Source: Candidatus Levyibacteriota bacterium (GTDB lineage Bacteria > Patescibacteriota > Microgenomatia > Levybacterales > UBA12049). Taken from it: a stretch of 64,000 nt of DNA. Position numbers and translations under genes: made by a program. The DNA lies in contig JBDRBE010000004.1 in the NCBI GenBank assembly GCA_043823085.1, positions 342,780 through 406,779 on the forward strand, in the 5' to 3' direction. Of this stretch, positions 1-64,000 are shown in pieces. The notes beneath the pieces are model-generated. The model did not search any database. It was not told where the DNA came from and saw only the letters and a list, made by a program, of their open reading frames with translations. Every line of letters starts with the position of its first letter. Within the stretch, counting starts at the first letter, position 1.

Positions 1-151
1 TGAACGATATTAACAACAAGTGATACCAAAAAGAATGAACTCAATGCCAAATGACTAATACTCCCCTCCTCCATCTTAATTTTTCTAAAAATGTAAGTAA
101 AAATGCCAAAAAAAATGGCAAAAATTGCCGAAACAATTAATAAGCCATTTA

Positions 152-373
152 TCAAAAACCAAAAAGGGAGCACGAAAATAAAGGAAAGACTAAAAAAATC
201 CAGCAATCGCAAAGTTTGAATTTTTGATCTTTTTGACATGATAAAAAAATACAAAAAAGCAGCCGCAACTCCCCCAAAGAGAGAAAGTCCGGGATGATAA
301 GGAAATAAAGCAAAAATAAACGGGTTAAAAAATTTTGGATCAAAATGAAAAACGACATAAAAAATCCTGGCAA
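152..373 (-). CDS. hypothetical hydrophobic ORF. It is possibly part of a membrane protein at the window edge.
   Basis: 73-aa highly hydrophobic ORF. The surrounding minus-strand sequence is hydrophobic-codon rich. No homology assignment. Confidence 0.15.
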   Translation of the reverse strand: MPGFFMSFFILIQNFLTRLFLLYFLIIPDFLSLGELRLLFCIFLSCQKDQKFKLCDCWIFLVFPLFSCSLFGF

Positions 374-534
374 AAAATAGTCCGATAATTATTGCTACAA
401 ATGCCAAATCATAAACTTTGTCCATCGAAATGTTTTTTCTGATAAGTACAAAGTCGTCATGGGCAAAGATGTAAAGACAAATCAAAAAAAGCAAAAAACA
501 GAACGCAAAAAGAAAAAATGAAAATTGCATAAAT

Positions 535-1806
535 TTACCGTCTGGCCATCAACACTCTTAACCCGCTAAAAGCGATTAAACTGATTCCAATTCCTGTCAA
601 AACGCGCCCCACTCCAAAAATGTCAGAAAGTTCTCCAACAATAATAACCGGCAAAAAAGAAGAAATCCCAACCAGAGAATTTAATACTCCATAAATCTTT
701 CCCCTAATTTCATCAGAAGTTTTTTCCTGCAAGAGCGTGTTTGACGGCACAAAAATCAAAGCGTTGGCAAATCCCAAAACAAAAGCCAAAAAAACCATGA
801 TATGAAGGATGTTAATAGTAAAAATATGCGGCAAATAATCATTTATTGTCTGAACAATTTCTCTTGAGGTAACTTTTGATCCATAAGGTAAAAAAAGAAT
901 CGATAATCCTCCGAGCATTACTCCGATATTGGCCATTTTTTCCCTTGAAAAATCATGAAAAAAATTAGCAATAATAATTGCGCCAACTACCATTCCAAGG
1001 GCCGCCGGCGTAACCAAAACTAATGGAAACTCCTCAACGTTAATTCCTAAAACCTGATGAGCAAATCCCGGCCCGACCACGGCAAAAAGTAAAATCAAAA
1101 CTTGCGAAAGAGTCAAAAGAAAAAGAGAATGATAAATCTCTTTAGTTTTTGCGATAAGACTAAAAGAGCTTCTTAATTCTCTGCCAAAATCGAGTTTTAA
1201 ACTCATCGCTTCCTCTTTTACTTTTTTGATTTTAGGAGCTTTAAGAAACGATATCGCAAATGCGGCTATAAAAAAAAGAACGGCAAGCACTATAAAAACG
1301 TTCCTTGAACCAAAAAAAATTAAAAAAGGTCCGGAAAGTGCATAAGCGACTAAAATTGAACCATATATCCCCATGCCAAAAAGCGCATTTGCCGAAAGAA
1401 GAAGTTTTTTTTTCACAACTAAGGGAATCATTGGGGTTTCTGCCGGAATAAAAAATTGCGTCACAATCGACATTGCAAAAGATAAAAGATAAATGAAGAA
1501 AAGATTGGAATGCAAAAAAGCAAGAATTATTAAAAGCATTGCCCGAACAATATTTGTGATAAAAAGAACATTTCTTTTATTCCATCTGTCAACATAAACT
1601 CCCGCCAATATTCCAAAAATGACAGCAGGTAAAGTAAATGAAAGAACAATCCCCGAAACAGCTGTATTTGAATTAGAAATTTTAAAGGCCACGATGATGA
1701 GAATAAAATTCATCATGTTAAAGCCTACTTGAGAAAAGACTTCGGCAATCCAAAGAAGAGAAAATCTTTTATTAAAAAGGGCGCAAAGAAGATGATTGTT
1801 CTTCAT
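535..1806 (-). CDS. MFS family transporter
   Basis: 423 aa, about 12 predicted TM segments. N-terminal MFS-like motifs (GxLaD-RwgrR-like: VYVDRWNKRN). Confidence 0.65.
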   Translation of the reverse strand: MKNNHLLCALFNKRFSLLWIAEVFSQVGFNMMNFILIIVAFKISNSNTAVSGIVLSFTLPAVIFGILAGVYVDRWNKRNVLFITNIVRAMLLIILAFLHSNLFFIYLLSFAMSIVTQFFIPAETPMIPLVVKKKLLLSANALFGMGIYGSILVAYALSGPFLIFFGSRNVFIVLAVLFFIAAFAISFLKAPKIKKVKEEAMSLKLDFGRELRSSFSLIAKTKEIYHSLFLLTLSQVLILLFAVVGPGFAHQVLGINVEEFPLVLVTPAALGMVVGAIIIANFFHDFSREKMANIGVMLGGLSILFLPYGSKVTSREIVQTINDYLPHIFTINILHIMVFLAFVLGFANALIFVPSNTLLQEKTSDEIRGKIYGVLNSLVGISSFLPVIIVGELSDIFGVGRVLTGIGISLIAFSGLRVLMARR

Positions 1807-1811
1807 TATTC

Positions 1812-4030: not shown

Positions 4031-4081
4031 ATATCTTCCTATTCTATCATCTTGCCCTCAAAAATCAAGGGATACTAAATT

Positions 4082-4110
4082 AGCTTCGCAAGGCGACGCC
4101 TTGCGAAGCT
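4082..4110. repeat. 29-bp near-perfect palindrome AGCTTCGCAAGGCGACGCCTTGCGAAGCT. A second copy is inside folA at 62503-62531.
   Basis: Seen directly in the sequence. Intergenic, between the pepA start and tRNA-Leu. Confidence 0.6.
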
Positions 4111-4179
4111 AAAATTTGAATAGTGCCATCGAAGCCAATTAAAGTTAAAGCTTGTTATGTTATAATTATTCCAGTCTTA

Positions 4180-5880: not shown

Positions 5881-6003
5881 ACCCCCTAACCATTTAGAAT
5901 TTTTGAAGTTGGATATCTTTGACATATTTGATCTTGAATATTTGAATAATTGACATCTTTATATCTAGAATTCAAGAAAATCACACTTCTAATCTCAAGA
6001 ATT
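5881..6003. repeat. partial copy of the palindromic intergenic element family (TCAAGA/GATATC/TCTAGA words, ..AATCACACTTCTAATCTCAAGAATTCTAAT terminus)
   Basis: Shares terminus and word composition with the elements at 42151, 43544, 48677 and 62074. Lacks the CAGCTG core. Confidence 0.45.
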
Positions 6004-7323
6004 CTAATCACTCTCTCTCTTTTTTTCGACACTATAAAATCTTATTCTATCTCCCCTAAAAAGTAAATCGATTTCGCCTGTTGGTCCGTTTCGATGCTTG
6101 GCAATTAAAAGTTTCATCGGCATTGTTTTTCCGTATTCTTCTTCGGTTCTATACAAAAACATCACCACGTCCGCGTCTTGTTCAATAGCTCCACTTTCCC
6201 GAAGATCCGCAAGCTGCGGTTTCCTCTCTCCCCTGTGCTCAACAGCACGCGAAAGTTGGGAAACTGCCAGAACCGGAACTTTAAGTTCTCTTGCCAAATT
6301 TTTTAAAGATTGGGAAACAATTGAAACTTCCTGAACCCGGTTGTCATAACGTCTCCCCGGATCTGCCAACTGTAAATAGTCAACGATAATCAATTTTATT
6401 TTATGCTCTAGCTGAAGTCTTCTTGCTTTAGAACGCATATCCGAAACAGAAAGTCCCGGCGTATCGTCAATAAAAATTGGCGCATCTGCAAGCTGTCCCA
6501 TGGCTTCTGACAAATTGCTAAAATCGCTTTCTGAAAGTTTTCCGGTTTTTAATCTCCAGGAATCAACATCTGCCTGATTAACCAAAAGTCTATCCACAAC
6601 TTCCTCCTTGCTCATTTCAAGGGAAAAAAATCCAACCGGAATTTTCTCATTAACGCCTATAAATTGTGCGATATTTACTGCCAGCGCTGTTTTTCCCTGT
6701 CCGGGACGAGCCGCCAAAATTATCAAATTTGACTCCTGAAGTCCGGAAAGCATATTATCTAAATCCATGAAACCTGTTTTTATACCGCGGAACCCCGCTC
6801 CCTTTTTATGCAGTTCATCAATTCTGTCAAAACTCTCGGCTAAAGCCTCACGAATTGGAATAAACCCTTTTGAAATTTGCCATTGAGAAAGAGAAAAAAT
6901 TGATGACTCGGCTTTATTGAGAATATCTTTTACTTCCTCTTCGCTGAAACCAAGTTCCGAAATTTCGTTGCCTGCCTTTATTAATGACCTTTTTAGAGAT
7001 GCTTCTTTTATAAGAAGAGCGTAGTGTTCAACATTTGCCGCGGTCGGAACTTTATTAATAAGATCGCTGATAAAAGACGCTTCGATTTTTTTGTCCATTT
7101 TTTCTTTTTTGAGTCTTGAGGTTAATGTAAGAATATCGATTGGTTTTTTATCTTCATATAAAGTTAGCATCACATTGTAAATAATGGCGTTTATGTCGTT
7201 ATAAAAATCTTTTGGAGAAATAATTTCGGAAACAATACTTATTGCATCTTTATCAATAAGAATTGCGCCCAAAACGCTTTCTTCTGCCTCGTCATTATGT
7301 GGAAGGATGCGTGAAACTACCAT
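6004..7323 (-). CDS. dnaB: replicative DNA helicase DnaB
   Basis: 439 aa. N-terminal DnaB domain (LPHNDEAEESVLGAIL). Walker A GARPGQGKT. RecA-like C-terminal domain. Confidence 0.9.
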   Translation of the reverse strand: MVVSRILPHNDEAEESVLGAILIDKDAISIVSEIISPKDFYNDINAIIYNVMLTLYEDKKPIDILTLTSRLKKEKMDKKIEASFISDLINKVPTAANVEHYALLIKEASLKRSLIKAGNEISELGFSEEEVKDILNKAESSIFSLSQWQISKGFIPIREALAESFDRIDELHKKGAGFRGIKTGFMDLDNMLSGLQESNLIILAARPGQGKTALAVNIAQFIGVNEKIPVGFFSLEMSKEEVVDRLLVNQADVDSWRLKTGKLSESDFSNLSEAMGQLADAPIFIDDTPGLSVSDMRSKARRLQLEHKIKLIIVDYLQLADPGRRYDNRVQEVSIVSQSLKNLARELKVPVLAVSQLSRAVEHRGERKPQLADLRESGAIEQDADVVMFLYRTEEEYGKTMPMKLLIAKHRNGPTGEIDLLFRGDRIRFYSVEKKRESD

Positions 7324-7324: not shown

Positions 7325-7400
7325 ATACTAGTTTATTAGCGTCTAGCGGCTAGCGTTTAGTTTAACTATACGCTATACACTATTAACTAGACGCTAGTAA
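7325..7400. repeat. ACGCTA/TAGACGCTAG word-repeat block
   Basis: Sequence ttagcgtctagcggctagcgtttag..aactatacgctatacactattaactagacgctag. Same word family as 31980-32010, 32302-32360 and inside dnaX at 45001-45070. Confidence 0.5.
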
Positions 7401-9233: not shown

Positions 9234-9980
9234 ATGATAAAAACCAAATCTGAGATTAAAAAAATTGAAAGGGCTTGCCAAGTTACCGATGAAACCTTTG
9301 ACCATATATTGAAAAAGATTAAGGTTGGAATTTCCGAAAGACAAGTTTCACTGGAAATTCAAAGATTCATCAAAAAATTTGGCGCCAAACTTTCTTTTCG
9401 GCCGATTATTGCTTTTGGAAAAAATTCCGCCAACCCTCATCATAAACCAAACAACACTATATTGAAAAATGGCGATTTTATAAAACTCGATTTTGGCGCA
9501 AAAGTCGACGATTACTGCTCCGACATGACCCGAACTGTTTTTATGGGAAAAGCAAGCCGCAGGCAAAAAAAAATTTATCAAACAGTCCTTGCTGCCCAAA
9601 AAAAAGCCATTAACTATCTTGAGTGGAGTCATTCTGAGCAGAGCGAAGAATCTCGAATGTCAGCGAGATCCCTCGGCCTTCGGCCTCAGGATAACATTCG
9701 GGGAAAAGATGTCGATAAGGCGGCAAGAGATTATGTTATTTCCAAAGGCTATCCCTCCTTCCCCCACGGCTTAGGTCATGGCATTGGAAAAAAAGTCCAT
9801 CAAAAACCAAAGCTTTCTCCAAAATCAAAACATTTTTTAAAACCCGGCATGGTGTTTTCCGTTGAGCCCGGAATATACCTAAGAAGCTTTGGTGGAGTTC
9901 GAATCGAAGACACGGTTGTTTTAGAAAAAACGGGCCTTCGCATCTTGACCAAAAGCACAAAAAGAATAATTGAACTTTAA
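9234..9980 (+). CDS. M24 family metallopeptidase (Xaa-Pro/methionine aminopeptidase-like) carrying an in-frame repeat insertion
   Basis: M24 C-terminal pita-bread motifs (DFGAKVDDYCSDMTRT, HGLGHGIG, VEPGIY, EDTVVL). A foreign 70-odd-nt segment, 9625-9697, is translated as HSEQSEESRMSARSLGLRPQDN. Confidence 0.7.
   Translation: MIKTKSEIKKIERACQVTDETFDHILKKIKVGISERQVSLEIQRFIKKFGAKLSFRPIIAFGKNSANPHHKPNNTILKNGDFIKLDFGAKVDDYCSDMTRTVFMGKASRRQKKIYQTVLAAQKKAINYLEWSHSEQSEESRMSARSLGLRPQDNIRGKDVDKAARDYVISKGYPSFPHGLGHGIGKKVHQKPKLSPKSKHFLKPGMVFSVEPGIYLRSFGGVRIEDTVVLEKTGLRILTKSTKRIIEL
9625..9697. repeat. GTCATTCTGAG..CTCAGGATAAC hairpin-type small element inserted in-frame in the M24 peptidase gene
   Basis: Sequence gtcattctgagcagagcgaagaatctcgaatgtcagcgagatccctcggccttcggcctcaggataac. 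Imperfect terminal inverted repeats and an internal GGCCTTCGGCC hairpin. GC-rich relative to the gene. Related GTCATTCTGA/GTCATGCTGAA words occur at 51078 and 56864. Confidence 0.5.
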
Positions 9981-11148: not shown

Positions 11149-11177
11149 TTGACAAGGAAAGTTTCTGTGGTATAAAC
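11149..11177 (+). promoter_or_regulatory. promoter TTGACA-N16-TGgTATAAA upstream of the RAYT gene. A near-identical copy sits at 11904-11931.
   Basis: ttgacaaggaaagtttctgtggtataaa compared with ttgacaaggaaaacttttgtggtatgat. Confidence 0.45.
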
Positions 11178-11184
11178 AACTATC

Positions 11185-11203
11185 ACACCCCCGAGGTGTA
11201 ACA
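11185..11203. repeat. REP-like hairpin (ACACCCCCGAGGTGTAACA), upstream flank of the RAYT gene
   Basis: Inverted repeat stem with a CCCGAGG loop. Same family as 11881-11902 and 33841-33877. Confidence 0.55.
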
Positions 11204-11212: not shown

Positions 11213-11878
11213 ATGTGCTATTATTTAATTATGCCTTATCGAACAACTCCACTTGTTAATAACGGTCTTTATCATATATATAACCGTGGCGTGGAAAAAA
11301 GACAAATCTTTATGAAAGACCGAGATTATCAAAGATTTCTCCAAACTCTCTACTATTATCAGTTTAGCGGTCCTAAAGCTCGTTTTTCTACGCATAAGAA
11401 ATTCAAAAATAAAAATTTTGATAAAAATCCTAAAATCGTGGAAATTATCTGTTACTGTTTAATGCCAAACCATTTTCATTTATTACTGAAACAATTAAAG
11501 GATAATGGCATTCAGGAATTTTTGAGTAAAGTAGCAAATAGTTATGCAAAATATTTCAATACTAAGTACAAACGAGTTGGTCCACTTTTACAAGGTCAAT
11601 TCAAAGCGGTAACTGTAGAAACCGATGAACAATTAGTCCATTTATCAAGATACATACACCTAAATCCATTCACAGCTGAAATTACAAAAGATTGGGAGAA
11701 CTTTCCCTACTCTTCCATTCAAGAGTTTATTGAGGATACAACTTCCAAAATTTGCGCCATTGAACAAATTTTAAATTTATTTACAAATCAAGCAGGATAT
11801 AGATCGTTTATTTCCGATAACCAATCATACGCTTTGGAACTTAGTAAAATCCAACATCTTTTAATAGACGAAGAATAA
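11213..11878 (+). mobile_element. REP-associated tyrosine transposase (RAYT; IS200/IS605 TnpA-like Y1 HUH transposase)
   Basis: HUH motif in CYCLMPNHFHLLL. Conserved YHIYNRG, SYAKYFN, RVGPLLQGQFKA and the catalytic Tyr region RYIHLNP. Flanked on both sides by REP hairpins. Confidence 0.75.
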
Positions 11879-11880
11879 TT

Positions 11881-11902
11881 GTTACACTCCCGAGGTGTAA
11901 CA
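11881..11902. repeat. REP-like hairpin GTTACAC-TCCCGAG-GTGTAAC, downstream flank of the RAYT gene
   Basis: Perfect 7-bp stem. Followed by a duplicated TTGACA..TATGAT promoter. Confidence 0.6.
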
Positions 11903-46390: not shown

Positions 46391-46504
46391 TAAAACCTTT
46401 CTAATTAAAAGTATATCAGAAAATTTTCGACGAAAAATTCAAAGGACCAAAGACTCAAAGAAACTAAAATCCAAAAACGAAGTGTCAAAAAATTCAAGAA
46501 CTAA

Positions 46505-47608: not shown

Positions 47609-48676
47609 TTATATTTTTTCTAAAACTTGAATAATCTGTTTTAAAGTTAATCTTGATGCTCTCATTTTTGGGTTTTTGGCACTGCCGTTTAGAAGCATTT
47701 TCTTTGATACGTGCAAAAACCACGATGCTTGCGGATCCATTTTTTTGAATTTTTCATAAACCAAAGTCAGATCTGCTCCTTTTTCTCCGCTGACACTGGG
47801 CCGCGCTTTTATCCTTACATATCCTTTTCTCGGATCGCGTCTTACAACTATTGCATACCCCATTTTTTGCGCCAATTTTATAACCGAGTCATTAACTGTC
47901 TCAACACCCAAACCTTTCCCCCATCTTGTCTTAAACTCAATTCCTTTCTCGGCGATTTCTTTTTCGGCCCAAACTCTGTTTTCAAAATCATGTAAAATTG
48001 CATCAAGGCACTGCGAAATAAAATCAACATAAAAATTATCATCATTTGGCTTTTCAAGTTTCAACCCGTCTAAAATTCCTAAAATTGCAAAATCATGATA
48101 AAAAGCCGTAGGATTTTCCCACAAAGCTTCTCTAAAATGATCAATATCTGTCACAACCTTTACAATTCTACCTATGGCTTCGCTCTTGTCTTTCATTCTC
48201 TCGCTCTCCGAACTTTGAACTTTGCCCTGAACTTGTCGGATGGATGAATTTTGAACTTTCTTGATGTAGTCCCAAACCAAACTGGATGCGCTGATGCTTT
48301 CATCGGAAGTTAAATGATGGTCCAAAGGTCCAAGTCCAGTATCAACATGAATCATTTCGTTGTCATCAATCTTCTCGATAGCATCTAAAGAAGAATTTTT
48401 GCCGCGGGGAGGCACAAAATTTTCGCTGTTCGCATCTTGTCGAGCGCCAATGCGTTGATGAACGCCTTGAGACTCATCGCGAGACAACTGCGGAACAAGA
48501 AAATTTTCGTGCCGACCTAAGCGGCTCAAACCCTCTTTTCCTCTCACTCGCAACCTTTCTCCCGATAAAACAAATCTCACTTCTGCATTTTCCCATCCTG
48601 CTAAAAATCTTTTTGTCAACCAAACCGAGCAAATCGCATCTAAATCAGGAGAAGTATGGGTAACAACAATTTTCAT
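47609..48676 (-). CDS. DHH family phosphoesterase (NrnA-like) carrying an in-frame MITE insertion
   Basis: DHH motif I HTSPDLDAICS and the DHH motif in VDTGLGPLDHH. A 125-nt MITE copy at 48401-48525 is translated between them. A GAACTTTG-repeat insert lies at about 48181-48260. Confidence 0.6.
   Translation of the reverse strand: MKIVVTHTSPDLDAICSVWLTKRFLAGWENAEVRFVLSGERLRVRGKEGLSRLGRHENFLVPQLSRDESQGVHQRIGARQDANSENFVPPRGKNSSLDAIEKIDDNEMIHVDTGLGPLDHHLTSDESISASSLVWDYIKKVQNSSIRQVQGKVQSSESERMKDKSEAIGRIVKVVTDIDHFREALWENPTAFYHDFAILGILDGLKLEKPNDDNFYVDFISQCLDAILHDFENRVWAEKEIAEKGIEFKTRWGKGLGVETVNDSVIKLAQKMGYAIVVRRDPRKGYVRIKARPSVSGEKGADLTLVYEKFKKMDPQASWFLHVSKKMLLNGSAKNPKMRASRLTLKQIIQVLEKI
48401..48525. 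mobile_element. MITE-like element copy inside the DHH phosphoesterase reading frame
   Basis: GGCACAAAATTTTCGCTGTTCGCAT ... CTGCGGAACAAGAAAATTTTCGTGCCGAC. 125 nt, which is about 42 codons with no stop. Confidence 0.6.
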
Positions 48677-48897
48677 ATACTGTAAGTATACAAAAAATTC
48701 AAACTCTTGACAAACTTTTAAAAATGTTACAATATATTATTATACCGAATTTTTGAGGTGGGAAGTGGGATTTTCTTGAACTTGATTTCTTGATAATTTG
48801 ATTTCTAGATATCAAGATTTCAAGACTTCAATTCGTCAGCTGACGAATCAAGATCGAAGACGTCAAGGATATCTAACTTCAAGAATTCCAAATAATT
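48677..48897. repeat. palindromic intergenic element plus overlapping divergent promoters
   Basis: GGTGGGAAGTGGGATTTTCTTGAACTTGA ... TTCGTCAGCTGACGAA. TTGACA on the plus strand at 48706. On the minus strand, TTGTCA-N17-TATACT-N6-ATG serves the DHH gene. Confidence 0.55.
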
Positions 48898-49371: not shown

Positions 49372-51079
49372 TTACTTCGTCTATTGTTAACATTTCTGTT
49401 TCGCTTTTAGCTCTTTCTTTGCATTCAATTTTATCACCGGTTTTGCCTGAAATTACTAAACGTATTGGACAACCGATTAAATCGCAGTCGGCGAATTTTT
49501 CCCCTGCCGAAATATCTCTATCGTCATAAAAAACCTCAATCCCCGCATCTTGCAATTTTTCATAAATTTCATCCGCCATTTTGTTGATTGTTGATTGTTG
49601 ATTGTTGATTGTTACGAGGTGTACCAAGTATGGTGCAACCGCTTCCGGCCACTTAATCCCTTTATCATCAGAGTGAACTTCAACAACCGCCGCCATTGTC
49701 CTTGCAATTCCAATTCCATAACAACCCATGTAATATGGTTTTTCTTTTCCGTTTTCGTCTGTAAAAGTGGCGCCTTTCATTTTTGAAGAATAGTGAAATC
49801 CAAGCTGAAAAATATTTCCAACCTCAATCCCCCGTTTTTCTATCAGTTTTTGACCGTTTGGCGCGGCGTATCCTGCTTTTGCAAGCTTGAACTCATAAAA
49901 CTTTTCAGGCTTGGGCAAGTCCCTGCCAAAATTTACATTAATATTGTGAATATTGGTTTTATTCGAACCCATTTCAAAATTCTTTCTTCCTCTCATTGAC
50001 TCATCCATAAAAATTCTGACATCTTTTGGTAAATTCAAAAGCCCGGCATATCCCACTTCTGCTCCTGTTATTTTTCTGACAGTCTCGGCCGACGCAAGCT
50101 TTAAAGAATAAACTTTGGCAACATGCGAGAGCTTAGTTTCATTTATCTCAAAATCTCCTCTGACTGCCGCGGCAATAACTTTTCCATTCTCGTCTTCAAA
50201 GAGAAGTGTTTTTGTGGTTTGTTCAACCGGAATATCAAGAAACTTCGCCAGCTCAAAAACTCCAATAATCCCTTTGCCCTCAACTTCTTCCATCGGCCTC
50301 TCTTCTTCACCGCTTTCTATTTGGTTTAATGAAAGTTTTGCAACGTCTTCATGGACACAATAACTTCCATCCTCTGTTGTCAAATACCTGCTTTCTCCGC
50401 TTTCATGTTCCACCACAAATTCATGACAATATTCCCCCCCGATATAACCGTTATCCGATTCAACAATAATAGTTTTCAACCCCAAACGCTCAAAAATTTT
50501 AGTGTAAGTTTTTTTCATTTTTTCATACTCTTTTTTGAAATCTTCCTCTGTTGTATGAAAAGAATATCCGTCTTTCATCACAAATTCTTTAACTCGCAAA
50601 AGCCCCCCCCGCGGCCGCAGTTCATCCCGAAACTTGGTAGAAAATTGGTAGAGATTAAAAGGCAAATCTTTGTAGCTTATCTGAAATTTACGAACTAAAT
50701 CAACCAGCATTTCCTCTGCTGTCCCACCCAAAACAAATTCCATTTCGTTTCTGTCTTTAACTTTTACAAGTTCAAAACCAACCGAATTTGTGCGGTTTGT
50801 TTCTTTCCATAAAGCAACCGGATGAAGAATTGGTGCTGTGATTTCCTGCGCACCTGCTTTATCCATTTCAACTTTTATAATATCTTGAATTTTCTGGTGG
50901 ACTTTTTGGCCAAGCGGTAAAAAATAATAACGCCCTGCTGTACTTTCGCGGATAAATCCTGCCTTATAAAGAAGTTTATGGGAAGTAATAACCGCATCCT
51001 TTGGCGCTTCCCGAATTGTTCTTCCAAACAGTTTTGAATATCTCATAACAAAAGTATAGCACAAATCCGCGATTGTCAT
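49343..51079 (-). CDS. proS: prolyl-tRNA synthetase (bacterial type), carrying an in-frame heptamer-repeat insertion
   Basis: Class II motifs and an anticodon-binding C-terminus. (TTGTTGA)x4 at 49581-49615 encodes TINNQQSTIN in the linker. Confidence 0.9.
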   Translation of the reverse strand: MTIADLCYTFVMRYSKLFGRTIREAPKDAVITSHKLLYKAGFIRESTAGRYYFLPLGQKVHQKIQDIIKVEMDKAGAQEITAPILHPVALWKETNRTNSVGFELVKVKDRNEMEFVLGGTAEEMLVDLVRKFQISYKDLPFNLYQFSTKFRDELRPRGGLLRVKEFVMKDGYSFHTTEEDFKKEYEKMKKTYTKIFERLGLKTIIVESDNGYIGGEYCHEFVVEHESGESRYLTTEDGSYCVHEDVAKLSLNQIESGEEERPMEEVEGKGIIGVFELAKFLDIPVEQTTKTLLFEDENGKVIAAAVRGDFEINETKLSHVAKVYSLKLASAETVRKITGAEVGYAGLLNLPKDVRIFMDESMRGRKNFEMGSNKTNIHNINVNFGRDLPKPEKFYEFKLAKAGYAAPNGQKLIEKRGIEVGNIFQLGFHYSSKMKGATFTDENGKEKPYYMGCYGIGIARTMAAVVEVHSDDKGIKWPEAVAPYLVHLVTINNQQSTINKMADEIYEKLQDAGIEVFYDDRDISAGEKFADCDLIGCPIRLVISGKTGDKIECKERAKSETEMLTIDEVIKRLCQGRG

Positions 51080-52604: not shown

Positions 52605-53606
52605 TTACTTCTTCTTCACCGGATGTCTTCCAAATTGCCAGCGCATGGCGGCAACCACTTTGTTACGAAATCCGTTTGGTGATATTTCTTTATCTTTATC
52701 TGAATTATCGCGAACGCAAACTGATGCGTTAAGGACTGGCGTCTCAACACCCATTTTCTTTGCCATTTCAACAGTCCAGTGCCCCTCCCCTTTTGTTTTT
52801 CCAGAACCTCCGCCTGAACCAATGACCGATGAAATATCCGAAAGGTTTTGGTCTTTTTTTAATTCATTTAAAGTCCAGCCAACTAAACGCGATTCTATTA
52901 TTGAACCGTTATTGTAAATTCGAAAGACTTCGCTAAGGTCATATTTAAACGGAGCATATTTTAAAATCGCCGCGCCTTCGCCAATTGCCTCCATCATGCC
53001 ATATTCAATTCCGTTGTGAATTGTCTTGGCAAAATGTCCAGCTCCAATTGGCCCCAAATGCGCGTAGCCGTCTTTTCTGGCAGCAGATTTTAGAATCGGC
53101 TCAATTCTTTTGAAGTCTTCTTTTTGCCCTCCGACCATAATACATGCGCCATTTCTTGCTCCTTCTATTCCTCCGCTTATTCCGCAGTCCATATAATGAA
53201 TTTGTTTTTTTGCTAAAGTTTTTGCACGCCGCAAAGTATGTGTGTAAAGCGAATTTCCTCCGTCAATTATCAAATCGCCAGAGGATAATTTATCCATCAA
53301 CTCGTTTAAAACCGCATCAACGGCCTCTCCAGCGCTAACCATCAGCCAGATTATTCGTGGGGTCTTTAAAGTTTTAACTAATTCTTCTAAGGTTTTTGTT
53401 GTTGTTAAATTCCCACCATTTGAATTATGAATTATGAATTTTGAATTATGAATTTTTTTATTTTTCCATAATTCCTGATTCCTAATTCTTAATTCTTCTA
53501 TCGATTCTTTTGATCGATTCCACGCCACAATTTCCATCCCCTCTTCCAAAAGATGCAAAACCATTGCCTTTCCCATTTTGCCCAAACCAATAAATCCAAT
53601 CTTCAT
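52605..53606 (-). CDS. gnd: 6-phosphogluconate dehydrogenase-like NAD(P)-binding protein (short form), carrying an in-frame repeat insertion
   Basis: N-terminus MKIGFIGLGKMGKAM is a Rossmann fold. C-terminal 6PGDH domain. AATTCATAATTCA-type repeats at 53421-53500 encode RIRNQELWKNKKIHNSKFIIHNSNGG. Confidence 0.65.
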   Translation of the reverse strand: MKIGFIGLGKMGKAMVLHLLEEGMEIVAWNRSKESIEELRIRNQELWKNKKIHNSKFIIHNSNGGNLTTTKTLEELVKTLKTPRIIWLMVSAGEAVDAVLNELMDKLSSGDLIIDGGNSLYTHTLRRAKTLAKKQIHYMDCGISGGIEGARNGACIMVGGQKEDFKRIEPILKSAARKDGYAHLGPIGAGHFAKTIHNGIEYGMMEAIGEGAAILKYAPFKYDLSEVFRIYNNGSIIESRLVGWTLNELKKDQNLSDISSVIGSGGGSGKTKGEGHWTVEMAKKMGVETPVLNASVCVRDNSDKDKEISPNGFRNKVVAAMRWQFGRHPVKKK

Positions 53607-53666
53607 AATAGAAATTCTTACATTTATAAATAAGAGAGTCAAGTCCTAAATTATTTAAACAAATAA

Positions 53667-53703
53667 ACAAAATACTACAGTGCTATGTAGTGCTAAAGTT
53701 TAG
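53667..53703. promoter_or_regulatory. 37-bp repeat ACAAAATACTACAGTGCTATGTAGTGCTAAAGTTTAG, 3' copy, overlapping the stop of the TrpR-like gene
   Basis: 34 of 37 identical to the copy at 54250-54286. Contains CTACA..TGTAG and TAGCGCTA-like dyads. Confidence 0.5.
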
Positions 53704-54238
53704 AACGCAAAAGTTTTTCAATACGCCTATGGAGCTCGTTTTTTTCGTCCAGCTTCTTTAACACATTGCTTATTTTGTCTTTCTGTTTTTGACTCGCACT
53801 TTCTATTACTTTTTCCAAAAGAAGCTCCGGCCAAAAATACAAAGCATGTCTTCTTTTAAATTTATCCCAATCTGAAATATCTGCCCAACTTTTTCCCTTC
53901 TCTATTTCTTGTTTAGGAAGTTTTTTTATTATATTCCTAAAACCATCTCCTCTTTCTGAAAGCCAAACAGCTATCTTCGCAATAGTGGCATAACTTACAT
54001 GCAATTGCCGATTCACTTTTTGATAAGTCAATCCTTTTATCAAAAGTTTTGCTATTCTTAATCTTTTAGATAAAATTTGAACTTCTTTCTTTGTCAATAA
54101 ATCTTGAAGAAATAAAGCAGCCTCGCCGATATTTCCTGTATAAACTAATGCATTAAGTAAATCAAAAAATAAGTCTCTCTGTTCATTTTTTGAAAGCTTT
54201 TCAATTCTTCTTGGTTTTTCAAAAAATGTTTTATTCAT
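53693..54238 (-). CDS. TrpR-like (YerC/YecD family) DNA-binding protein, second paralog
   Basis: HTH region TYQKVNRQLHVSYATIAKIAVWL. Family similarity to the 36560 protein. Confidence 0.6.
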   Translation of the reverse strand: MNKTFFEKPRRIEKLSKNEQRDLFFDLLNALVYTGNIGEAALFLQDLLTKKEVQILSKRLRIAKLLIKGLTYQKVNRQLHVSYATIAKIAVWLSERGDGFRNIIKKLPKQEIEKGKSWADISDWDKFKRRHALYFWPELLLEKVIESASQKQKDKISNVLKKLDEKNELHRRIEKLLRSKL

Positions 54239-54249
54239 AAAATGAACTA

Positions 54250-54286
54250 ACAAAATACTACAGTGCTATGTAGCGCTAAAGTATAG
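54250..54286. promoter_or_regulatory. 37-bp repeat, 5' copy, just upstream of the TrpR-like start (putative operator with a TATACT -10)
   Basis: In gene orientation, TATACT is followed directly by the TAGCGCTA palindrome and the CTACA-N6-TGTAG dyad. Confidence 0.5.
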
Positions 54287-54352
54287 ACGTAATTAGCCTA
54301 ACATATTAATTATGGAAGAATCAATAAGAAGAATTCGCAAGATAATTGGAGA

Positions 54353-54679: not shown

Positions 54680-56115
54680 TTTCTCCCATCCTTCTGGATT
54701 AATTCATTTGCCTCTTTTGGTCCCCACGTCCCTGATTCATAATTCATAATTCCTGATTCCCGTCTCTTCCATCCTTCCAGAATTTTAGTGATAAACTCCC
54801 ACGAACTGTCAAGCTCGTCAGAGCGGTTAAAAAGCATCTGGTCACCAACAAAAATGTCCAAAAGAACTTTTTCGTATGCATTTGTACCTTTTGTATGAAA
54901 TTCGTCTTCGTAATTAAAATTCATATTTACTGTTCCCAACGACACTTTTGAACCCGGCTTTTTTGCGATAACGCGAAGACTAATTCCTTCATTCGGTTGA
55001 ATTCTGATAGTCAAAACATTTCCGGTCTCTGGACAACCATATTCTTTAAATAAAACATGGCAAGTTTGAATAAAAACTATAGAAATTTCCACAGTGCTTT
55101 TTGGCATTTTCTTCCCTACTCTTGCATAAAACGGCACATTTTTAAATCTTTCCGAGTCAACATATAATTTCATTGCAACAAAGGTTTCGGTATTTGATTT
55201 CGGATCAACATCCTTTTCTTTTAGATAGCCTTCATATTGTCCTCTTGCCACAAACTTATCAACCTCATTAGATTCTATGGAGCGGATTGCTTTAATTGCA
55301 TTTGCCCTAACATCACGCATATCGTCTCTTGTAAAGCTTCTTGGCTGTTCCATGGCAACTGCCGCTACCATTTGCATAATGTGATTTTGACCCATGTCCC
55401 TTAACGTCCCAACTCCGTCAAAAAACTTTCCTCTTCTTTCTATTCCCTTTTCTTCTGCAAGTGTGATTTGCACATGATCAATAAAATTTTTGTTCCAGAC
55501 CGGTTCAAAAATTCCGTTGGCAAATCTAAAAGCAATCATGTTCTGCACCGTCTCTTTTCCTAAATAATGATCAACCCTAAAAATCTGTCTTTCTTCAAAG
55601 ATCTCCGAAAGCCTTTTATCAAGCGCTCTCGCAGTCTCTAGGTCTTTACCAAAGGGTTTTTCAATAATAATTTTTGTCCACTTATTGCTTCCCTGTCCGC
55701 ACCCTTCGGAAAGTTTTGAATGATTAAGATGCTCTAAAATTTCCGGATAATTGGCTGGCGGCGTTGCCAAATAAAAAAGGCGCGTAACACAAGCGCCAAT
55801 TTCTTTATCAAATCCTTCCAGTTTTTTAATTAATTCTTCGTAATCTTCCTTTTCCTCAAATTTTCCTTGTTGGTAAAAAATATTTTTTGAAAACGCGTCC
55901 CAATCACTCTGACGATATGTATTATTAGAGTGTAAAAATTCTTTTAGAAGACTATGAAACTCGCTGTTTGTGAACTCTCTTCTTGCAAAACCAATGAGAT
56001 AAAATTTTTCCGGTAATTTTTTTTCTTGAAAGAGTTTAAAAAGAGAAGGAAGAAGTTTAGTCCGCATCAAATCCCCTGTTGCCCCAAAAATAATCATTGC
56101 AAATGGAGAATTCAT
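54667..56115 (-). CDS. zwf: glucose-6-phosphate 1-dehydrogenase
   Basis: NADP-binding GATGDL. Active-site segment DHYLGKE. Motif EKPFG. Small in-frame insert IMNYES from AATTATGAATTATGAAT near the C-terminus. Confidence 0.85.
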   Translation of the reverse strand: MNSPFAMIIFGATGDLMRTKLLPSLFKLFQEKKLPEKFYLIGFARREFTNSEFHSLLKEFLHSNNTYRQSDWDAFSKNIFYQQGKFEEKEDYEELIKKLEGFDKEIGACVTRLFYLATPPANYPEILEHLNHSKLSEGCGQGSNKWTKIIIEKPFGKDLETARALDKRLSEIFEERQIFRVDHYLGKETVQNMIAFRFANGIFEPVWNKNFIDHVQITLAEEKGIERRGKFFDGVGTLRDMGQNHIMQMVAAVAMEQPRSFTRDDMRDVRANAIKAIRSIESNEVDKFVARGQYEGYLKEKDVDPKSNTETFVAMKLYVDSERFKNVPFYARVGKKMPKSTVEISIVFIQTCHVLFKEYGCPETGNVLTIRIQPNEGISLRVIAKKPGSKVSLGTVNMNFNYEDEFHTKGTNAYEKVLLDIFVGDQMLFNRSDELDSSWEFITKILEGWKRRESGIMNYESGTWGPKEANELIQKDGRKWIQ

Positions 56116-56860: not shown

Positions 56861-56960
56861 ATTCTCTCCATGTCATGCTGAACTTGTTTCAGCATCTCGA
56901 TTTATTCACTGTGCAATGAGATTCCGAAATAAATTCGGAATGACACTACATGATTTTTTT
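56861..56960. repeat. hairpin-rich intergenic block (GCTGAA-CTTG-TTTCAGC; ATTCCGAA-ATAA-ATTCGGAAT) flanked by GTCATGCTGAA..GAATGACAC
   Basis: Two perfect hairpins between pgl and rseP. The flanking motif is related to the 9625 element. Confidence 0.45.
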
Positions 56961-56962: not shown

Positions 56963-58192
56963 TTATGGACCAAAAATATTTTTGCCGGAAATTAATCTGG
57001 TTAAATCATGAAAAGTTATTAAGGCAATTAAAGTCAAAAGTAATGCCATACCAATCGCGTGAGAGTAGCTTTCGAATTTGGCCGGAACTCTTCGCCGAGT
57101 TGCTACTTCTATCAGAATAAAAAACAATCTTCCACCGTCCAAAGCCGGAATTGGCAAGATATTAAAAAAAGCAAGCGAAATCGACAATATTCCGGCGAGA
57201 TTTAGAACCTGTAAAATTTTTTCTTTAAGATCGGGTATTTTAACAATATTTCCAACCAAAGAGTATATTCCTACCGGACCGGCAACGCTTTGGGAAATAG
57301 GCTCGGCGGTTTTTTCTTTTATCGAAATACCAATTAGCTGTCCCATGATGTTGAAATTGTAAGCCAGAAGATTTAATGGATGAGTAAATCCGGAAAATAT
57401 TTTTTGAGGAACAGTTTTATAATCTAAAACTACCATTGAAACCGGAAAAAAACTAATTCCGATTGCTCCCTCGTTTTTGGGAGGATTTATTCTTGGTGTA
57501 ATTTTTGCAAAATAATTTTTATTATTTTTTGCATCCTGCCATGCAACTGTAATTTCTTTTCCTTTATTTTTACTAATAATTTCGGCAAAATAATTCACAT
57601 CATTAACTTTTTGTCCATTTATAGAAAGAATCTTTGAAAAAGATTTAATTCCCGCAATTTCTGCCGGCGAGTTTTTGGCAACATCGGCAATAATTATATC
57701 CGAAGAGTTAGTTTGAGAAACGGCAAAAAATTTATGATCGCCCAAAAGCGGGAGCTGGGTTTTAAAATCGGAAATAAATAAAAATGCGTAGAAAATAACT
57801 GCGGCAAGAACTGTATTCATAAAAACGCCGGCCACTACAATCACCGCTCTTTGTCCGACCGGTCTTGCAAAAAACGCACGGTCTTTATTCTTAATTCTTA
57901 ATTCCTGATTTTTAATTCCCGGCCTGCCGCTACCGGCCTCATCCTCGCCATAAAGTTTTACAAATCCGCCAATCGGCAGCCAATTAATTGAATAAATAGT
58001 CTCGCCCTTTTTTATGCCAAACGCTCTTGGAGGAAGTCCAAACCCAAATTCTTCAACTTTTATCCCTAATTTTTTTGCTACAAAAAAATGCCCAAACTCG
58101 TGAATCAACACTAAAATCGAGAGAATAACCAAAAAAACAACGGCCGTAATTATCATAAATTTTGACTTATATATCGCGGGGAGCCTTTTCAT
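56963..58192 (-). CDS. rseP: RseP-type site-2 protease (M50) with a PDZ domain
   Basis: HEFGH zinc motif in TM1. PDZ domain. LDGG motif. In-frame insert IKNQELRIKNKD from the TAATTCTTAATTCCTGATT repeat at 57886-57921. Confidence 0.8.
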   Translation of the reverse strand: MKRLPAIYKSKFMIITAVVFLVILSILVLIHEFGHFFVAKKLGIKVEEFGFGLPPRAFGIKKGETIYSINWLPIGGFVKLYGEDEAGSGRPGIKNQELRIKNKDRAFFARPVGQRAVIVVAGVFMNTVLAAVIFYAFLFISDFKTQLPLLGDHKFFAVSQTNSSDIIIADVAKNSPAEIAGIKSFSKILSINGQKVNDVNYFAEIISKNKGKEITVAWQDAKNNKNYFAKITPRINPPKNEGAIGISFFPVSMVVLDYKTVPQKIFSGFTHPLNLLAYNFNIMGQLIGISIKEKTAEPISQSVAGPVGIYSLVGNIVKIPDLKEKILQVLNLAGILSISLAFFNILPIPALDGGRLFFILIEVATRRRVPAKFESYSHAIGMALLLTLIALITFHDLTRLISGKNIFGP

Positions 58193-59379: not shown

Positions 59380-59380
59380 T

Positions 59381-62073: not shown

Positions 62074-62213
62074 GGGCTAGTTTTTAGAATCTTTGATGTG
62101 AGAAGTGGGATTTTCTTGAACTTGACCGTTTTGATATCTAGATATCTAGAATTCAAGAAATCGAAGATTCAAGATCAAAAATGTCAAAAATATCTCACGT
62201 CAAAAATTCTAGT
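62074..62213. repeat. palindromic intergenic element, a copy lacking the CAGCTG core
   Basis: Termini TAGAATCTTTGATGTGAGAAGTGGGATTTTCTTGAACTTGA and ATATCTCACGTCAAAAATTCTAG. Aligns with the reverse complement of the 43544 copy. Confidence 0.55.
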
Positions 62214-62744
62214 TCATCTCTCCAATTCCAAAAACTTATATTTATGTCCTTCCCACTTTCCTTCTTTTTCAAAAACTATTTTTTTGAATATTGATTCGTA
62301 TTCCGGGAAAAAAGTGTCGGCGTCTTTAACAGCATCTACAATTGTTAAATATAATTTATCCGTTAAACCAATCGCCTGCTGATAAATCTGTCCCCCCCCG
62401 ATAATAAATATTTCTTTTTTATTGTCATGCCAAACTTGTTTCGGCATCTCACGAGATTCTGAAGCCATTTTCAACGCTTCATCCAAAGAACTCGTAATTT
62501 TTAGCTTCGCAAGGCGTCGCCTTGCGAAGCTAGAATCTCGCGAAATAACTATGTTCGTCCTATTGGGAAGAGGATGGCCAATCGACTCGAAGGTTTTTCG
62601 CCCCATTATAATAGTATGGCCACATGTTTTTTCGCGAAACCGCTTCATATCTTCGGGGATTTGCCACAACAATTTATTATCGTTCCCAATTCCTCTGTCT
62701 TTTGAAATCGCTACGATGATGCTGATTTTTGAATTATGAATCAT
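62214..62744 (-). CDS. folA: dihydrofolate reductase, carrying an in-frame palindrome insertion
   Basis: DHFR motifs (IVAISKDRGIG, LLW, MGRKTFESIG). The 29-bp palindrome at 62503-62531 encodes SSFARRRLAKLKI. Confidence 0.8.
   Translation of the reverse strand: MIHNSKISIIVAISKDRGIGNDNKLLWQIPEDMKRFREKTCGHTIIMGRKTFESIGHPLPNRTNIVISRDSSFARRRLAKLKITSSLDEALKMASESREMPKQVWHDNKKEIFIIGGGQIYQQAIGLTDKLYLTIVDAVKDADTFFPEYESIFKKIVFEKEGKWEGHKYKFLELER
62503..62531. repeat. 29-bp palindrome AGCTTCGCAAGGCGTCGCCTTGCGAAGCT inside folA. Sister copy at 4082-4110.
   Basis: Seen directly in the sequence. GC-rich in an AT-rich gene. Confidence 0.6.
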
Positions 62745-63229
62745 AAATTATGAATTTTTGAACTTTTAATCAAACCGTTTGAATCGCTAAAAAACTTAAT
62801 TGCATCCTCCACCGTTTGTTTAACATTTGCCAATAATTGATATTTATCTAAATCTGACGTTTTTACCCATTCCGGAATTGTTTCTTCCGATTCTTTTATT
62901 TCCCCTGAAAATTTTAAACAAAGAAAAACATGCCAGGAAAAATTTACAACTCCCTGTTTTCTTTTAATTGCCGCATAATAAATATTATTAGGATAATCAA
63001 CAAATGAAATTCCTGTTAACCCCGTTTCTTCTTTTAATTCTCTAATTGCCGTATCTTTTTCTGTTTCACTCTCATCAACTTTTCCGCCGGGCAAACCATA
63101 AATTCCTGTCAAATGTCCTGCTTTTTGGGTATGTCTTACAAGCAAAACTTTATCATCTTTGATAAGTAATGCCGCCGCTGATAAAACAATATTTTTAAGT
63201 TTTTGATTTTTCGTAGAAGCCTCCTGCAA
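62741..63229 (-). CDS. NUDIX hydrolase
   Basis: Nudix box GGKVDESETEKDTAIRELKEETGL. Confidence 0.7.
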   Translation of the reverse strand: MQEASTKNQKLKNIVLSAAALLIKDDKVLLVRHTQKAGHLTGIYGLPGGKVDESETEKDTAIRELKEETGLTGISFVDYPNNIYYAAIKRKQGVVNFSWHVFLCLKFSGEIKESEETIPEWVKTSDLDKYQLLANVKQTVEDAIKFFSDSNGLIKSSKIHNL

Positions 63230-64000
63230 CAGTTAATTCACCTTTTAAAACAGGATAAGGATCGTAATTTTCCAAAGTCACGTGTTCCACGCGAAAATCG
63301 TCAATTTCTTTTACGCCTTTATCGATTGTTACTTTTGGAAAAGGACGGGGTTTTCTTTTTAGTTGTTCTTTCACTTGTTCAATATGATTTTTATAAATAT
63401 GCGCATCGCCAAAAGTATGAACAAACTCTCCCGGCTTAGCTTTTAAAACTTGAGCAATTATTATTGCTAGTAAAGCATAACTTGCAATATTAAAAGGAAC
63501 TCCCAAAAATAAATCGGCACTTCGCTGATAAAGCTGTAAATAAACTTTTCCGCCTTTCAAACTAATTTGGTACATGTTGTGACAGATTGGAAAACGCGAG
63601 GCGTCTTTGTATTCTGCCATTTTGTAGAGATATTCCGGATTCCAGGAATTCACAATTGCATTACGGGCATATTTATCTTCCCGAAGTTCACCAATCGCCC
63701 ATTTTAACTGATCTATTGTTCTTTTTGTTCTTGTTGGCCATCTTCTCCATAATTCTCCATAAATTTTAGGAAGATTCCCCCACTTTTTTGCAAATTTATT
63801 ATCGTCTTTAATTTTTTGAATAAACTCCTCTTTTGCCATTTGTTGATTCGTTGTTTTATTGATTTGTTGATTGTAAATTTTGTACGGGTAATCGTCCCAG
63901 ATATGAACATTGTTATCAACAAGATATTTGATATTTGATTGCCCCGACATAAACCAATAAAGTTCATGCAAAACCCCTTTCCAGTAAACTTTTTTAGTGG
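63195..64000 (-). CDS. thyA: thymidylate synthase, N-terminus outside the window
   Basis: HELYWFMSG, RRWPTR..P and the C-terminal ThyA motifs. Contains a degenerate QQINKTTNQQ insert from TTGTTGATT-like repeats at 63841-63880. Confidence 0.85.
   Translation of the reverse strand, partial: TKKVYWKGVLHELYWFMSGQSNIKYLVDNNVHIWDDYPYKIYNQQINKTTNQQMAKEEFIQKIKDDNKFAKKWGNLPKIYGELWRRWPTRTKRTIDQLKWAIGELREDKYARNAIVNSWNPEYLYKMAEYKDASRFPICHNMYQISLKGGKVYLQLYQRSADLFLGVPFNIASYALLAIIIAQVLKAKPGEFVHTFGDAHIYKNHIEQVKEQLKRKPRPFPKVTIDKGVKEIDDFRVEHVTLENYDPYPVLKGELTVAGGFYEKSKT

Follow-up and report, generated by a model that had tools for sequence, protein, structure and literature searches.

The window analyzed here, a 64,000-nt stretch of contig JBDRBE010000004.1 (positions 342,780–406,779) from a Candidatus Levyibacteriota bacterium, carries short repeats within the open reading frames (ORFs) of its housekeeping genes, and these repeats probably record two superimposed processes, the insertion of hairpin elements and an independent turnover of heptanucleotide (heptamer) arrays, filtered by selection. 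Alignment with orthologues reveals true insertions made of repeat sequence in the gene for a DHH-family protein (the DHH gene), dnaX (site 1), folA, a gnd-like dehydrogenase gene, and recR. Six other sites, in zwf, dnaX (site 2), rseP, proS, thyA, and the N terminus of folA, have no extra length relative to Levybacteria orthologues. The first-pass annotation of this DNA had listed all of these genes, together with that of an M24 peptidase, as carrying in-frame insertions of dispersed repeats. That claim holds for the first group of sites, whereas heptanucleotide arrays at lineage-conserved positions, rather than new dispersed-element insertions, make up about half of the listed sites, and a repeat origin for the M24 segment did not stand.

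The M24 and DHH proteins of the window are exact matches to NCBI proteins of a “Candidatus Levyibacteriota” metagenome-assembled genome (MAG), whereas a look-up of the exact folA protein returned no record. Over 8.5 kb the window is 100% identical to a separately assembled contig of run SRR27458547, from which no population variation can therefore be read. A query with the zwf protein retrieved 80 syntenic loci, nearly all from Levybacteria/Levyibacteriota or Microgenomates and with no more than 69% amino-acid identity. Orthologues were extracted from these 80 loci and aligned, and the window proteins were also aligned to structures in the PDB. The related loci (1.25 Mb for the array counts) carry labels such as L002 and L083, and their proteins labels such as P0145. 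Repeat families were obtained from self-BLAST, repeat finding, and Tandem Repeats Finder; copy numbers come from 64 kb out of a contig of 431 kb or longer and are minimum values. Hairpin z-scores compare fold stability with that of shuffled controls. At least 10 short-repeat families are present in the window, which bears out the “at least eight” of the first-pass annotation.

The translated hairpin elements belong to FamB, FamC, FamG, and FamH, with hairpin z-scores of −5.4, −5.2, −5.5, and −9.0, respectively. The families are mutually unrelated in sequence, in agreement with the earlier proposal that several unrelated families are involved at once. Their copies in the window are as follows (strand is given where assigned).

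48395–48523, minus strand: FamB in the DHH gene, in frame, amino acids (aa) ~45–93, “GRHENFLVPQ...NSENFVPPRG”.
21616–21800, minus strand: intergenic FamB copy directly 3′ of the stop codon of an S41 peptidase gene, with stops in all six frames.
35995–36180, minus strand: intergenic FamB copy directly 3′ of the stop codon of an Fe-S assembly protein gene.
62496–62536, minus strand: FamC in folA, a 37-nt perfect hairpin encoding “SFARRRLAKL”, a net gain of 3 aa over orthologues and the dihydrofolate reductases (DHFRs) in the PDB.
4080–4117: intergenic FamC copy between pepA and tRNA-Leu.
44955–45066, minus strand: FamG in dnaX site 1, aa 64–96, in the zinc-module loop, with ACGCTAx heptamers and a nested GC hairpin.
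7337–7399: intergenic FamG copy between dnaB and the next gene, without an open frame.
32320–32356: intergenic FamG-related fragment (Smith-Waterman score 23 against 7328–7400; null 7.6 ± 1.5).
53421–53497, minus strand: FamH in the gnd-like gene, (GAATYAN)4, a spacer, and inverted (NTRATTC)5, encoding the peptide “ELRIRNQELWKNKKIHNSKFIIHNS”.

FamB provides the clearest view of such an element. It is laid out as two inverted arms of about 35 nt (GGCACAAAAnTTTTC..GTTCGCA) around a variable center, with terminal inverted repeats. In the DHH gene it accounts for an insert of about 40 aa that is absent from 49 of 49 orthologues; this copy keeps the arms of the family and has a different center, which is richer in GC and free of stops. 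An nhmmer model built from FamB copies outside the window only recovers the DHH copy (E = 1.1e-15) along with both intergenic window copies, and the same profile also matches L009, L019, L035, L059, and L083, for a total of more than 10 copies in related loci. A scan of JGI metagenomes with the right arm identified six loci, and a compact FamB of about 95 nt occurs in L082, L083, L085, L086, and L087, with a conserved 7-nt bulge in 5/6 loci. The best-characterized intergenic copies (B1 and B2 of the window and those of L083, L086, and L093) sit directly 3′ of a stop codon, and the match strands give one orientation relative to the neighboring genes throughout. FamB is also translated in the C-terminal dnaX linker of L083, where both the orientation and the arm peptides are those of the window DHH gene. 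The same L083 gene holds a 33-nt heptamer array, and in its close relatives L004, L009, and L086 the dnaX sites are empty of both the FamB insert and the array. Locus L093 has FamB in the DHH loop, again in frame and in that orientation, as well as an intergenic copy. A permissive Rfam search of the FamB-bearing loci returned only chance matches to eukaryotic small nuclear and small nucleolar RNAs; FamB is not among the described RNA families. A peptide search with the DHH insert gave no matches, an outcome that carries no weight because the database searched does contain the window DHH protein (P0121).

The DHH loop that accommodates FamB is a recurrent site of insertion. Among 120 homologues its modal length is 39 aa, and it reaches at least 45 aa in 40 of them. 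These 40 long loops contain at least nine unrelated insert types, including FamB-like (5), FamG-like (6), and FamH-like (1) inserts, and several have an “array-core-array” makeup with GC-rich cores such as PFDKLRT. Composite inserts of this kind were seen in the rseP loop of L026 and in the DHH loops of P0152, P0131, P0234, P0140, and P0218, with a GC-rich core (PFDKLRT, PASQRGE, or SGQ type) between identical heptamer-encoded peptides, e.g., LKIKD...LKIKD or ISNFKF...ISNFK. From their arrangement it looks as if the cores either enter existing arrays or carry arrays as arms.

In terms of structure, AlphaFold2 models the window DHH protein with a mean predicted local distance difference test score (pLDDT) of 82 and a predicted template modeling score of 0.78, and the pLDDT of the core is >90. 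Insert residues 49–96, between strands 32–36 and 100–103, form the sole long low-confidence segment (pLDDT <50), and the insert is predicted to be an unstructured loop with the host fold kept. In the PDB alignments of the window proteins, the other inserts likewise fall at gaps between aligned blocks, i.e., in loops. The first-pass suggestion that the repeats are exploited as modular loops gains no support from anything tested: inserts differ between close relatives, and the DHH insert is modeled as unstructured.

FamC, FamG, and FamH extend these observations to other genes. The FamC copy in folA is identical to the copy beside tRNA-Leu at 36 of 37 nt (97%; E = 1e-9), and no FamC was found in the related loci. 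Compared with PDB homologues and orthologues, DHFR carries a second insertion, of about 10 aa (“ESREMPKQVWHDN”), at folA aa 94–106 (62425–62470), with only a weak match to intergenic positions 56873–56898 (E = 0.005). The FamG insert at dnaX site 1 adds 32 aa between residues 66 and 70 of E. coli gamma, with the insert-junction peptide “KLNAKRPALPAGR”. Of all windows compared, 7337–7399 is its best match (Smith-Waterman score 22; null 9 ± 1.6), and nhmmer gives E = 3e-7. Further FamG copies are located in L023 (dnaX) and L091 (DHH gene), the latter with a 26-nt identical run and a BLASTP E of 1e-7. The FamH insert, common to the window and L009, lengthens the gnd-like protein by about 13 aa; homologues are carried by the L009 gnd gene and, in L092/P0145, by the DHH gene, with ~80% identity over 80 nt. 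An intergenic FamH copy was found neither in the window nor in the related loci, the only copies seen lying in gnd and DHH genes. Thus, similarity between coding and intergenic copies, on which the first-pass proposal depended, is significant for FamB (1e-15), FamC (1e-9), and FamG (3e-7).

A different outcome was obtained for the M24 peptidase gene (9621–9692, plus strand), in which a real insertion of 22–24 aa (aa 130–153) occupies a loop that is hypervariable among 25 homologues. No second copy of this segment was found by motif search of the window and 81 loci, by BLAST, or by a 10-mer scan, and it does not form a significant hairpin (z = +0.46). Its candidacy as a repeat-derived insert was therefore dropped.

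The behavior of FamA illustrates the filter to which these elements are probably subject. FamA is a quasi-palindromic repeat of ~150 nt, with 8-nt TTGAnnTC subrepeats around a 20-nt perfect palindrome, and its six copies in the window are all intergenic.

5893–6023: FamA copy 1, 3′ of dnaB.
23800–23966: FamA copy 2, upstream of ssb.
42151–42311: FamA copy 3, between prs and recR, without an open frame.
43553–43712: FamA copy 4, between dnaX and prs, hairpin z of −7.0, without an open frame.
48747–48892: FamA copy 5, inverted, upstream of the DHH gene.
62078–62211: FamA copy 6, inverted, between folA and glyA.

No FamA copy is open in any of its six frames, and none lies inside a gene; a scan of 41.9–49.1 kb for promoters and terminators gave no convincing signal in the FamA copies it covered. 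Among the translated copies, 1–2 of six frames are open, one of which is the frame read. Window copies of FamB and FamG that lie between genes are open in 0–1 of six frames, and both FamC copies in 2. The statement of the first-pass annotation that no coding copy introduces a stop is correct, and it is also unavoidable in any intact gene. Given that FamA, lacking any open frame, is absent from genes, the stop-free state of the coding copies is best attributed to survivorship, and the six-frame analysis fits the purifying filter for frame-neutral, stop-free copies that had been proposed.

The second process concerns arrays of 7-nt units, which are found in the window at the following positions.

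41615–41649, minus strand: recR array, (ATCAACA)x5, encoding “QQSTINNQQLT”, a gain of 5–6 aa, common to L012 and L019.
49581–49613, minus strand: proS array, (TCAACAA)x4.7, encoding “VTINNQQSTIN”, a variable segment without extra length relative to many orthologues.
44412–44445, minus strand: dnaX site 2 array, perfect (GTATCAA)x4.9, encoding “YQVSSIKYQVS”, not an insertion.
54731–54760, minus strand: zwf segment, heptamer-periodic, encoding “ESGIMNYES”, not an insertion, kept in L002 and L003.
57877–57918, minus strand: rseP segment, heptamer-periodic, encoding “IKNQELRIKNK”, not an insertion.
62723–62767, minus strand: segment at the end of the Nudix gene and start of folA, heptamer-periodic, 82% identical to gnd 53421–53465, not an insertion.
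63838–63872, minus strand: thyA segment, period 7–8, encoding “NQQINKTTNQQ”, with the same length as in orthologues.

The recR and proS arrays are 97% identical over 33 nt, and the peptide “KYQVSSIKYQV” of dnaX site 2 recurs in L002, L007, and L078 along with degenerate forms of the (GTATCAA) array. A GC-rich hairpin (TTGGCGAAGCAACTTCGCCAA) at 41650–41674 abuts the recR array within the coding sequence, with a z-score of −4.7 for the fold of the region.

The preference for a period of 7 is pronounced. With a threshold of at least 12 matched positions for a perfect run and expectations from Markov simulations, the window holds six period-7 runs (about 0.03 expected) and three period-14 runs, with every other period represented at most once; a 50-kb phage T4 control (34% GC) has no period-7 runs. 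In the 1.25 Mb of related loci, 98 such runs (52 of period 7 and 46 of period 14) were counted, as compared with 0–6 for each other period from 4 to 15. Of 64 perfect arrays, 57 (~89%) are inside ORFs of 100 aa or more and the other 7 between genes, a distribution close to the coding fraction of the window (0.87). The strand that is read in coding arrays is the one without stops; in 48 of the 57, at least one of the three frames of the reverse-complement unit has a stop. The units, rich in A (e.g., AAATTTC, AACAATC, AAGAATC, and AAAGTTC), give 7-residue-periodic peptides and form perfect arrays whose lengths cluster near 33 nt (11 aa).

Throughout the lineage, the arrays also keep to the same places in the proteins. 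Perfect period-7/14 runs are found in the orthologous loops of gnd (19/66), rseP (16/62), recR (6/17), dnaX site 1 (6/40), and proS (5/59), whereas periods 4–6 and 8–10 never reach threshold there, and the units vary by lineage. L031 and L057, which are ~87% identical over the ~2.2 kb that align at ≥80% identity, have arrays in which several units carry an identical substitution or the entire array uses another unit. Together, the lineage-conserved positions and the concerted change of units indicate that the arrays are long-lived residents of tolerant loops and not fresh insertions of dispersed elements.

One feature of the units calls for separate mention. The tetranucleotide TCAA is present on the sense strand of 30 of 57 coding array units (53%), as compared with 14.5% expected from composition and stop avoidance; stop avoidance was therefore rejected as the full explanation of the TCAA core, with the proviso that arrays at orthologous sites are not independent. 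TCAA is also a cleavage tetranucleotide of IS608 TnpA, a likeness that serves as a lead only. The TTGAnnTC subrepeat of FamA contains a TCAA core on its other strand.

These observations can be accommodated by the following scheme. Non-autonomous hairpin families (FamA, FamB, FamC, FamG, FamH, and the repetitive extragenic palindrome [REP] described below) would be scattered in the genome, most copies landing in very short intergenic spacers, often right after a stop codon, and occasionally inside a gene. A gene-borne copy would survive only in a tolerant surface loop, with a length that is a multiple of three and a stop-free read frame and with the fold undisturbed, and would then be translated as an unstructured loop. 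Movement would most likely proceed through a single-strand hairpin intermediate handled in trans by an enzyme of the HUH/Y1 type. Independently, period-7 and period-14 arrays would arise and turn over in tolerant loops by replication slippage and within-array exchange. Since 7 is not divisible by 3, all three frames are used in reading an array, and the encoded peptides repeat every 7 residues (STINNQQ, KFKVQSS, LRIKNQE); only units that are stop-free on the sense strand would persist in genes. The arrays would hold their protein positions across the lineage while the unit sequence is repeatedly homogenized and replaced. Composite elements like FamH have such arrays as their arms, and GC-rich cores are bordered by them.

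Several points weigh against this two-process scheme. On the side of the hairpin elements, FamC is known from two copies only; the FamB copies inspected show no clear target-site duplication and no insertion sequence (IS) with matching ends occurs in the window; and none of the translated families yielded a target-site duplication or an autonomous partner. Transposase-like genes in the window are limited to the one described below and an integrase-like fragment. In co-oriented loci such as these, the single orientation of FamB is confounded with the direction of genes and of replication, and we infer the translation of inserts from intact reading frames. On the side of the arrays, slippage by a single unit would frameshift an essential gene, which leaves turnover in frame unexplained, and the TCAA bias is not predicted by simple slippage. 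Of the 35 indels that separate close relatives, only about 3 distinct events are heptamer arrays, so that arrays are not what mainly drives changes in length. Neither process accounts for the M24 insert or the second folA insertion.

The first-pass annotation also pointed to the co-occurrence of a REP-associated tyrosine transposase (RAYT) with the repeats. The gene and its associated hairpins are located as follows.

11213–11878, plus strand: RAYT-like Y1 (HUH) transposase gene (PF01797, E = 2.5e-7; motifs PNHFHLLL and YIHLNP).
11175–11203: REP hairpin (CACACCCCCGAGGTGTAAC) just upstream of the RAYT gene.
11874–11902: REP hairpin at the 3′ end of the RAYT gene.
33841–33876: third REP hairpin, intergenic, upstream of cysS.

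The RAYT is real in that it has both the HUH and the tyrosine motifs and is flanked by REPs; its match to NF047646 (REP_Tyr_transpos; E = 8.8e-13, 48 bits) falls below the cutoff of 80, and a sequence search of the PDB gave no match. The REP has no BLAST similarity to FamB, FamC, FamG, or FamH, all three of its copies are intergenic, and it shows no doublet structure in the window. Its link to the translated families thus goes no further than co-occurrence.

Short repeats that do not enter the argument above include FamD, FamE, and FamF.

18668–18756: FamD copy 1, AT-rich, built of 7-mers, intergenic.
35320–35443: FamD copy 2, palindromic, with TAAATTT arrays, intergenic.
FamE and FamF: two copies each, short, mainly intergenic, just upstream of genes and overlapping gene ends.

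Contig L089 of the Logan assembly of SRR27458547 ends at ~4085 and ~18750 (positions derived from gene coordinates rather than from alignment to the window), adjoining FamC at 4080–4117 and FamD at 18668–18756, which suggests that these repeats break short-read assemblies.

Other accounts of the data can be weighed against the two-process scheme. The simplest invokes no mobile elements: low-complexity loops would change where they stand, through slippage and point mutations, and would resemble intergenic sequence by convergence. Consistent with this notion, 6 of 12 claimed sites lack extra length relative to orthologues, the loops at those sites are heptamer-periodic across the lineage, and units would be expected to recur, as few A-rich heptamers are free of stops. 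However, nucleotide identity of FamB, FamG, and FamH extends across genes and genomes (a 26-nt run; ~80% over 80 nt) and to intergenic copies, close relatives have empty sites, and the two ~35-nt arms and conserved 7-nt bulge of FamB cannot arise convergently, making this account improbable. We consider it equally improbable that the inserts are exapted functional modules, kept as surface loops (e.g., for episymbiotic interactions) or as mRNA structures that tune expression. The peptides “ESGIMNYE” of zwf and “KYQVSSIKYQV” of dnaX are kept between genomes whose orthologues are ~68–69% identical, the ~33-nt (11-aa) array size could encode a strand-turn-strand unit, and intergenic FamB copies share one orientation beside stop codons, all of which might be expected of such modules. 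Yet insert family, length, and presence at one loop vary widely between relatives, AlphaFold2 shows no structure for the DHH insert, and the hosts are cytoplasmic housekeeping enzymes of unrelated function.

A single RAYT/REPIN system (REPINs being REP-based elements), in which the RAYT at 11213–11878 mobilizes all of the hairpin families including the translated ones, is slightly less probable still. The HUH and tyrosine motifs, the flanking REP hairpins, and the REPIN-like two inverted arms of FamB are what such a system would display, and the co-orientation of hairpin elements in co-oriented loci would fit single-strand transposition. The REP (GTTACACC...GGTGTAAC), however, has no sequence in common with FamB, FamC, FamG, or FamH, its three copies all being intergenic, and the NCBIfam score of the transposase lies below the curated cutoff. 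RAYTs are, moreover, normally specific for their own flanking REP. Least probable by far is an artefact of metagenome assembly or binning in which repeats were collapsed or misjoined into genes. The contig ends of L089 beside FamC and FamD copies are the kind of sign that such an artefact would leave, but the separate SRR27458547 assembly is 100% identical over 8.5 kb that include the gnd, zwf, and rseP arrays and encodes an identical M24 protein with its insert, the host ORFs are all intact, and the same phenomena recur in dozens of independent MAGs from different studies. The combination of hairpin-element insertion and array turnover under selection is the reading that we retain.

The hairpin elements of the window are reminiscent of the Rickettsia palindromic elements (RPEs), whose in-frame occurrence (Ogata et al. 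2000, 2002) is summarized in PMC10969869. Like RPEs, they are short palindromic hairpin repeats of several families, found between genes and in frame within unrelated housekeeping genes, with reading frames that stay open and insertion sites in loops compatible with the fold. The differences are that the host belongs to another phylum (Levybacteria, within the Candidate Phyla Radiation [CPR]), the likeness being one of behavior, with no sequence homology expected across phyla; that the elements are often shorter, from 37 to ~125 nt, and some are made of heptamer arrays; and that one protein loop holds at least nine insert families across relatives, beside a lineage-wide excess of heptamer arrays. 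The window elements work like RPEs and are not filed as members. The parallel with Rickettsia drawn in the first-pass annotation is accordingly upheld for FamB, FamC, FamG, and FamH.

Classical REPs are extragenic by definition. The RAYT-like gene with its flanking short GC-rich hairpins and a third copy elsewhere resembles a REP/REPIN-RAYT system, and FamB is REPIN-like in its two-arm layout and in the position of its intergenic copies just 3′ of genes; the RAYT-adjacent REP of the window is, in contrast, unrelated to the translated families. [quoted passage not shown]

In terms of the arrays, heptameric repeats are over-represented in bacteria, for which polymerase slippage has been considered (PMC4692102, in a passage citing Mrazek 2007). 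The heptameric simple sequence repeats described there (GGGAATC in Xanthomonas; STRR/GGGGAYT in Nostoc; PMC4692102) share with the present arrays an excess specific to period 7 and a size of about 4–5 units. As portrayed there, the Xanthomonas and Nostoc cases are G-rich, intergenic, and under-represented in coding sequence, whereas the arrays of this lineage are A-rich (often TCAANNN), lie to ~89% in ORFs on the sense strand, and are translated in three frames in essential genes. Nothing on heptamer arrays in CPR bacteria was found in the literature searched. As in contingency loci, coding tandem repeats have a unit that is not a multiple of three; the hosts here are, however, housekeeping genes (dnaX, recR, proS, zwf), every orthologue examined is in frame, and no on/off switching was seen.

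The window as a whole agrees with the first-pass description of an AT-rich genome of housekeeping genes. It has a GC content of 36–41% and about 65 genes, mostly housekeeping according to Pfam and NCBIfam, among them efp, pepA, dnaB, the M24 peptidase gene, hisS, cysS, recR, prs, dnaX, ybeY, the DHH gene, proS, the gnd-like gene, zwf, pgl, rseP, frr, tsf, rpsB, glyA, folA, the Nudix gene, and thyA; an Rfam search of the window at the gathering threshold found tRNA-Leu only. Several further repeats lie beside genes. A 55-nt direct repeat (84% identical) at 53650–53704 and 54233–54287, with the internal palindrome ACTACAGTGCTATGTAGTGC, has one copy just upstream of each of two adjacent genes, the gnd-like gene and that for a TrpR-like regulator, and it could be an operator common to both promoters. 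Two 28-nt perfect palindromes, at 36531–36558 (CACTTAAATGATATATATCATTTAAGTG) and, nearly identical, at 37006–37033, bracket a second TrpR-like gene (36560–37003). A repeat of ~135 nt (67% identical) is found at 2377–2509 upstream of efp and at 45943–46077 upstream of a small rpsU gene (45744–45929, minus strand) that is missing from the 100-aa ORF list; it may represent a common leader or promoter region.

Other segments were noted within coding sequence. An ORF fragment at 46187–46438 (minus strand) is, as judged by eye, like the C-terminal part of an rve/IS3-type integrase (“...LRKECLGWTKYKL...YYRKKRPHISLG”) and looks like a transposase remnant. Positions 25111–25509 comprise Thr/Pro-rich tandem repeats (periods of 12–30 nt) with a local GC content higher than in the rest of the window, in a 414-aa ORF (24461–25705) that has no Pfam match, and a tandem duplication of ~159 nt (64–75% identity) occupies 31241–31638 in a zinc-ribbon ORF region (31148–31708). 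Relative to PDB homologues, cysS has a 13-aa insertion (“GHMRRPGENQDNQ”) at aa ~70–83 (34070–34110). The heptamer-like segment “KELGIMNS” of cysS was also considered as an insertion and was rejected, as no insertion is seen relative to the cysteinyl-tRNA synthetases in the PDB.

If the two-process reading is correct, protein-coding palindromic repeats, hitherto treated as a peculiarity of Rickettsia, would suggest, through this case in the CPR, a general way for very compact genomes to take up selfish DNA and gain new protein loops. Essential genes are normally cleared of repeats with a unit length not divisible by three; throughout this lineage such repeats have stayed in dnaX, recR, proS, zwf, and others, and as such they bear on replication fidelity and repair in reduced genomes and on the long-standing puzzle of why period 7 is favored in bacteria. 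For work with MAGs, such segments have practical consequences: assemblies break at them, proteins seem more divergent than they are, and phylogenies and annotations built on alignments can be misled. A bolder and rather doubtful possibility is that a lineage-wide active process in Levybacteria, perhaps in Microgenomates more widely, writes short cassettes (TCAA-biased arrays of ~33 nt, with hairpin cores in or next to them) into a limited set of tolerant loops of essential proteins, the arrays serving as landing pads or arms that are kept in frame by homogenization. Were this so, it would amount to a natural in-frame loop mutagenesis of the core proteome, beyond passive slippage and rare transpositions.

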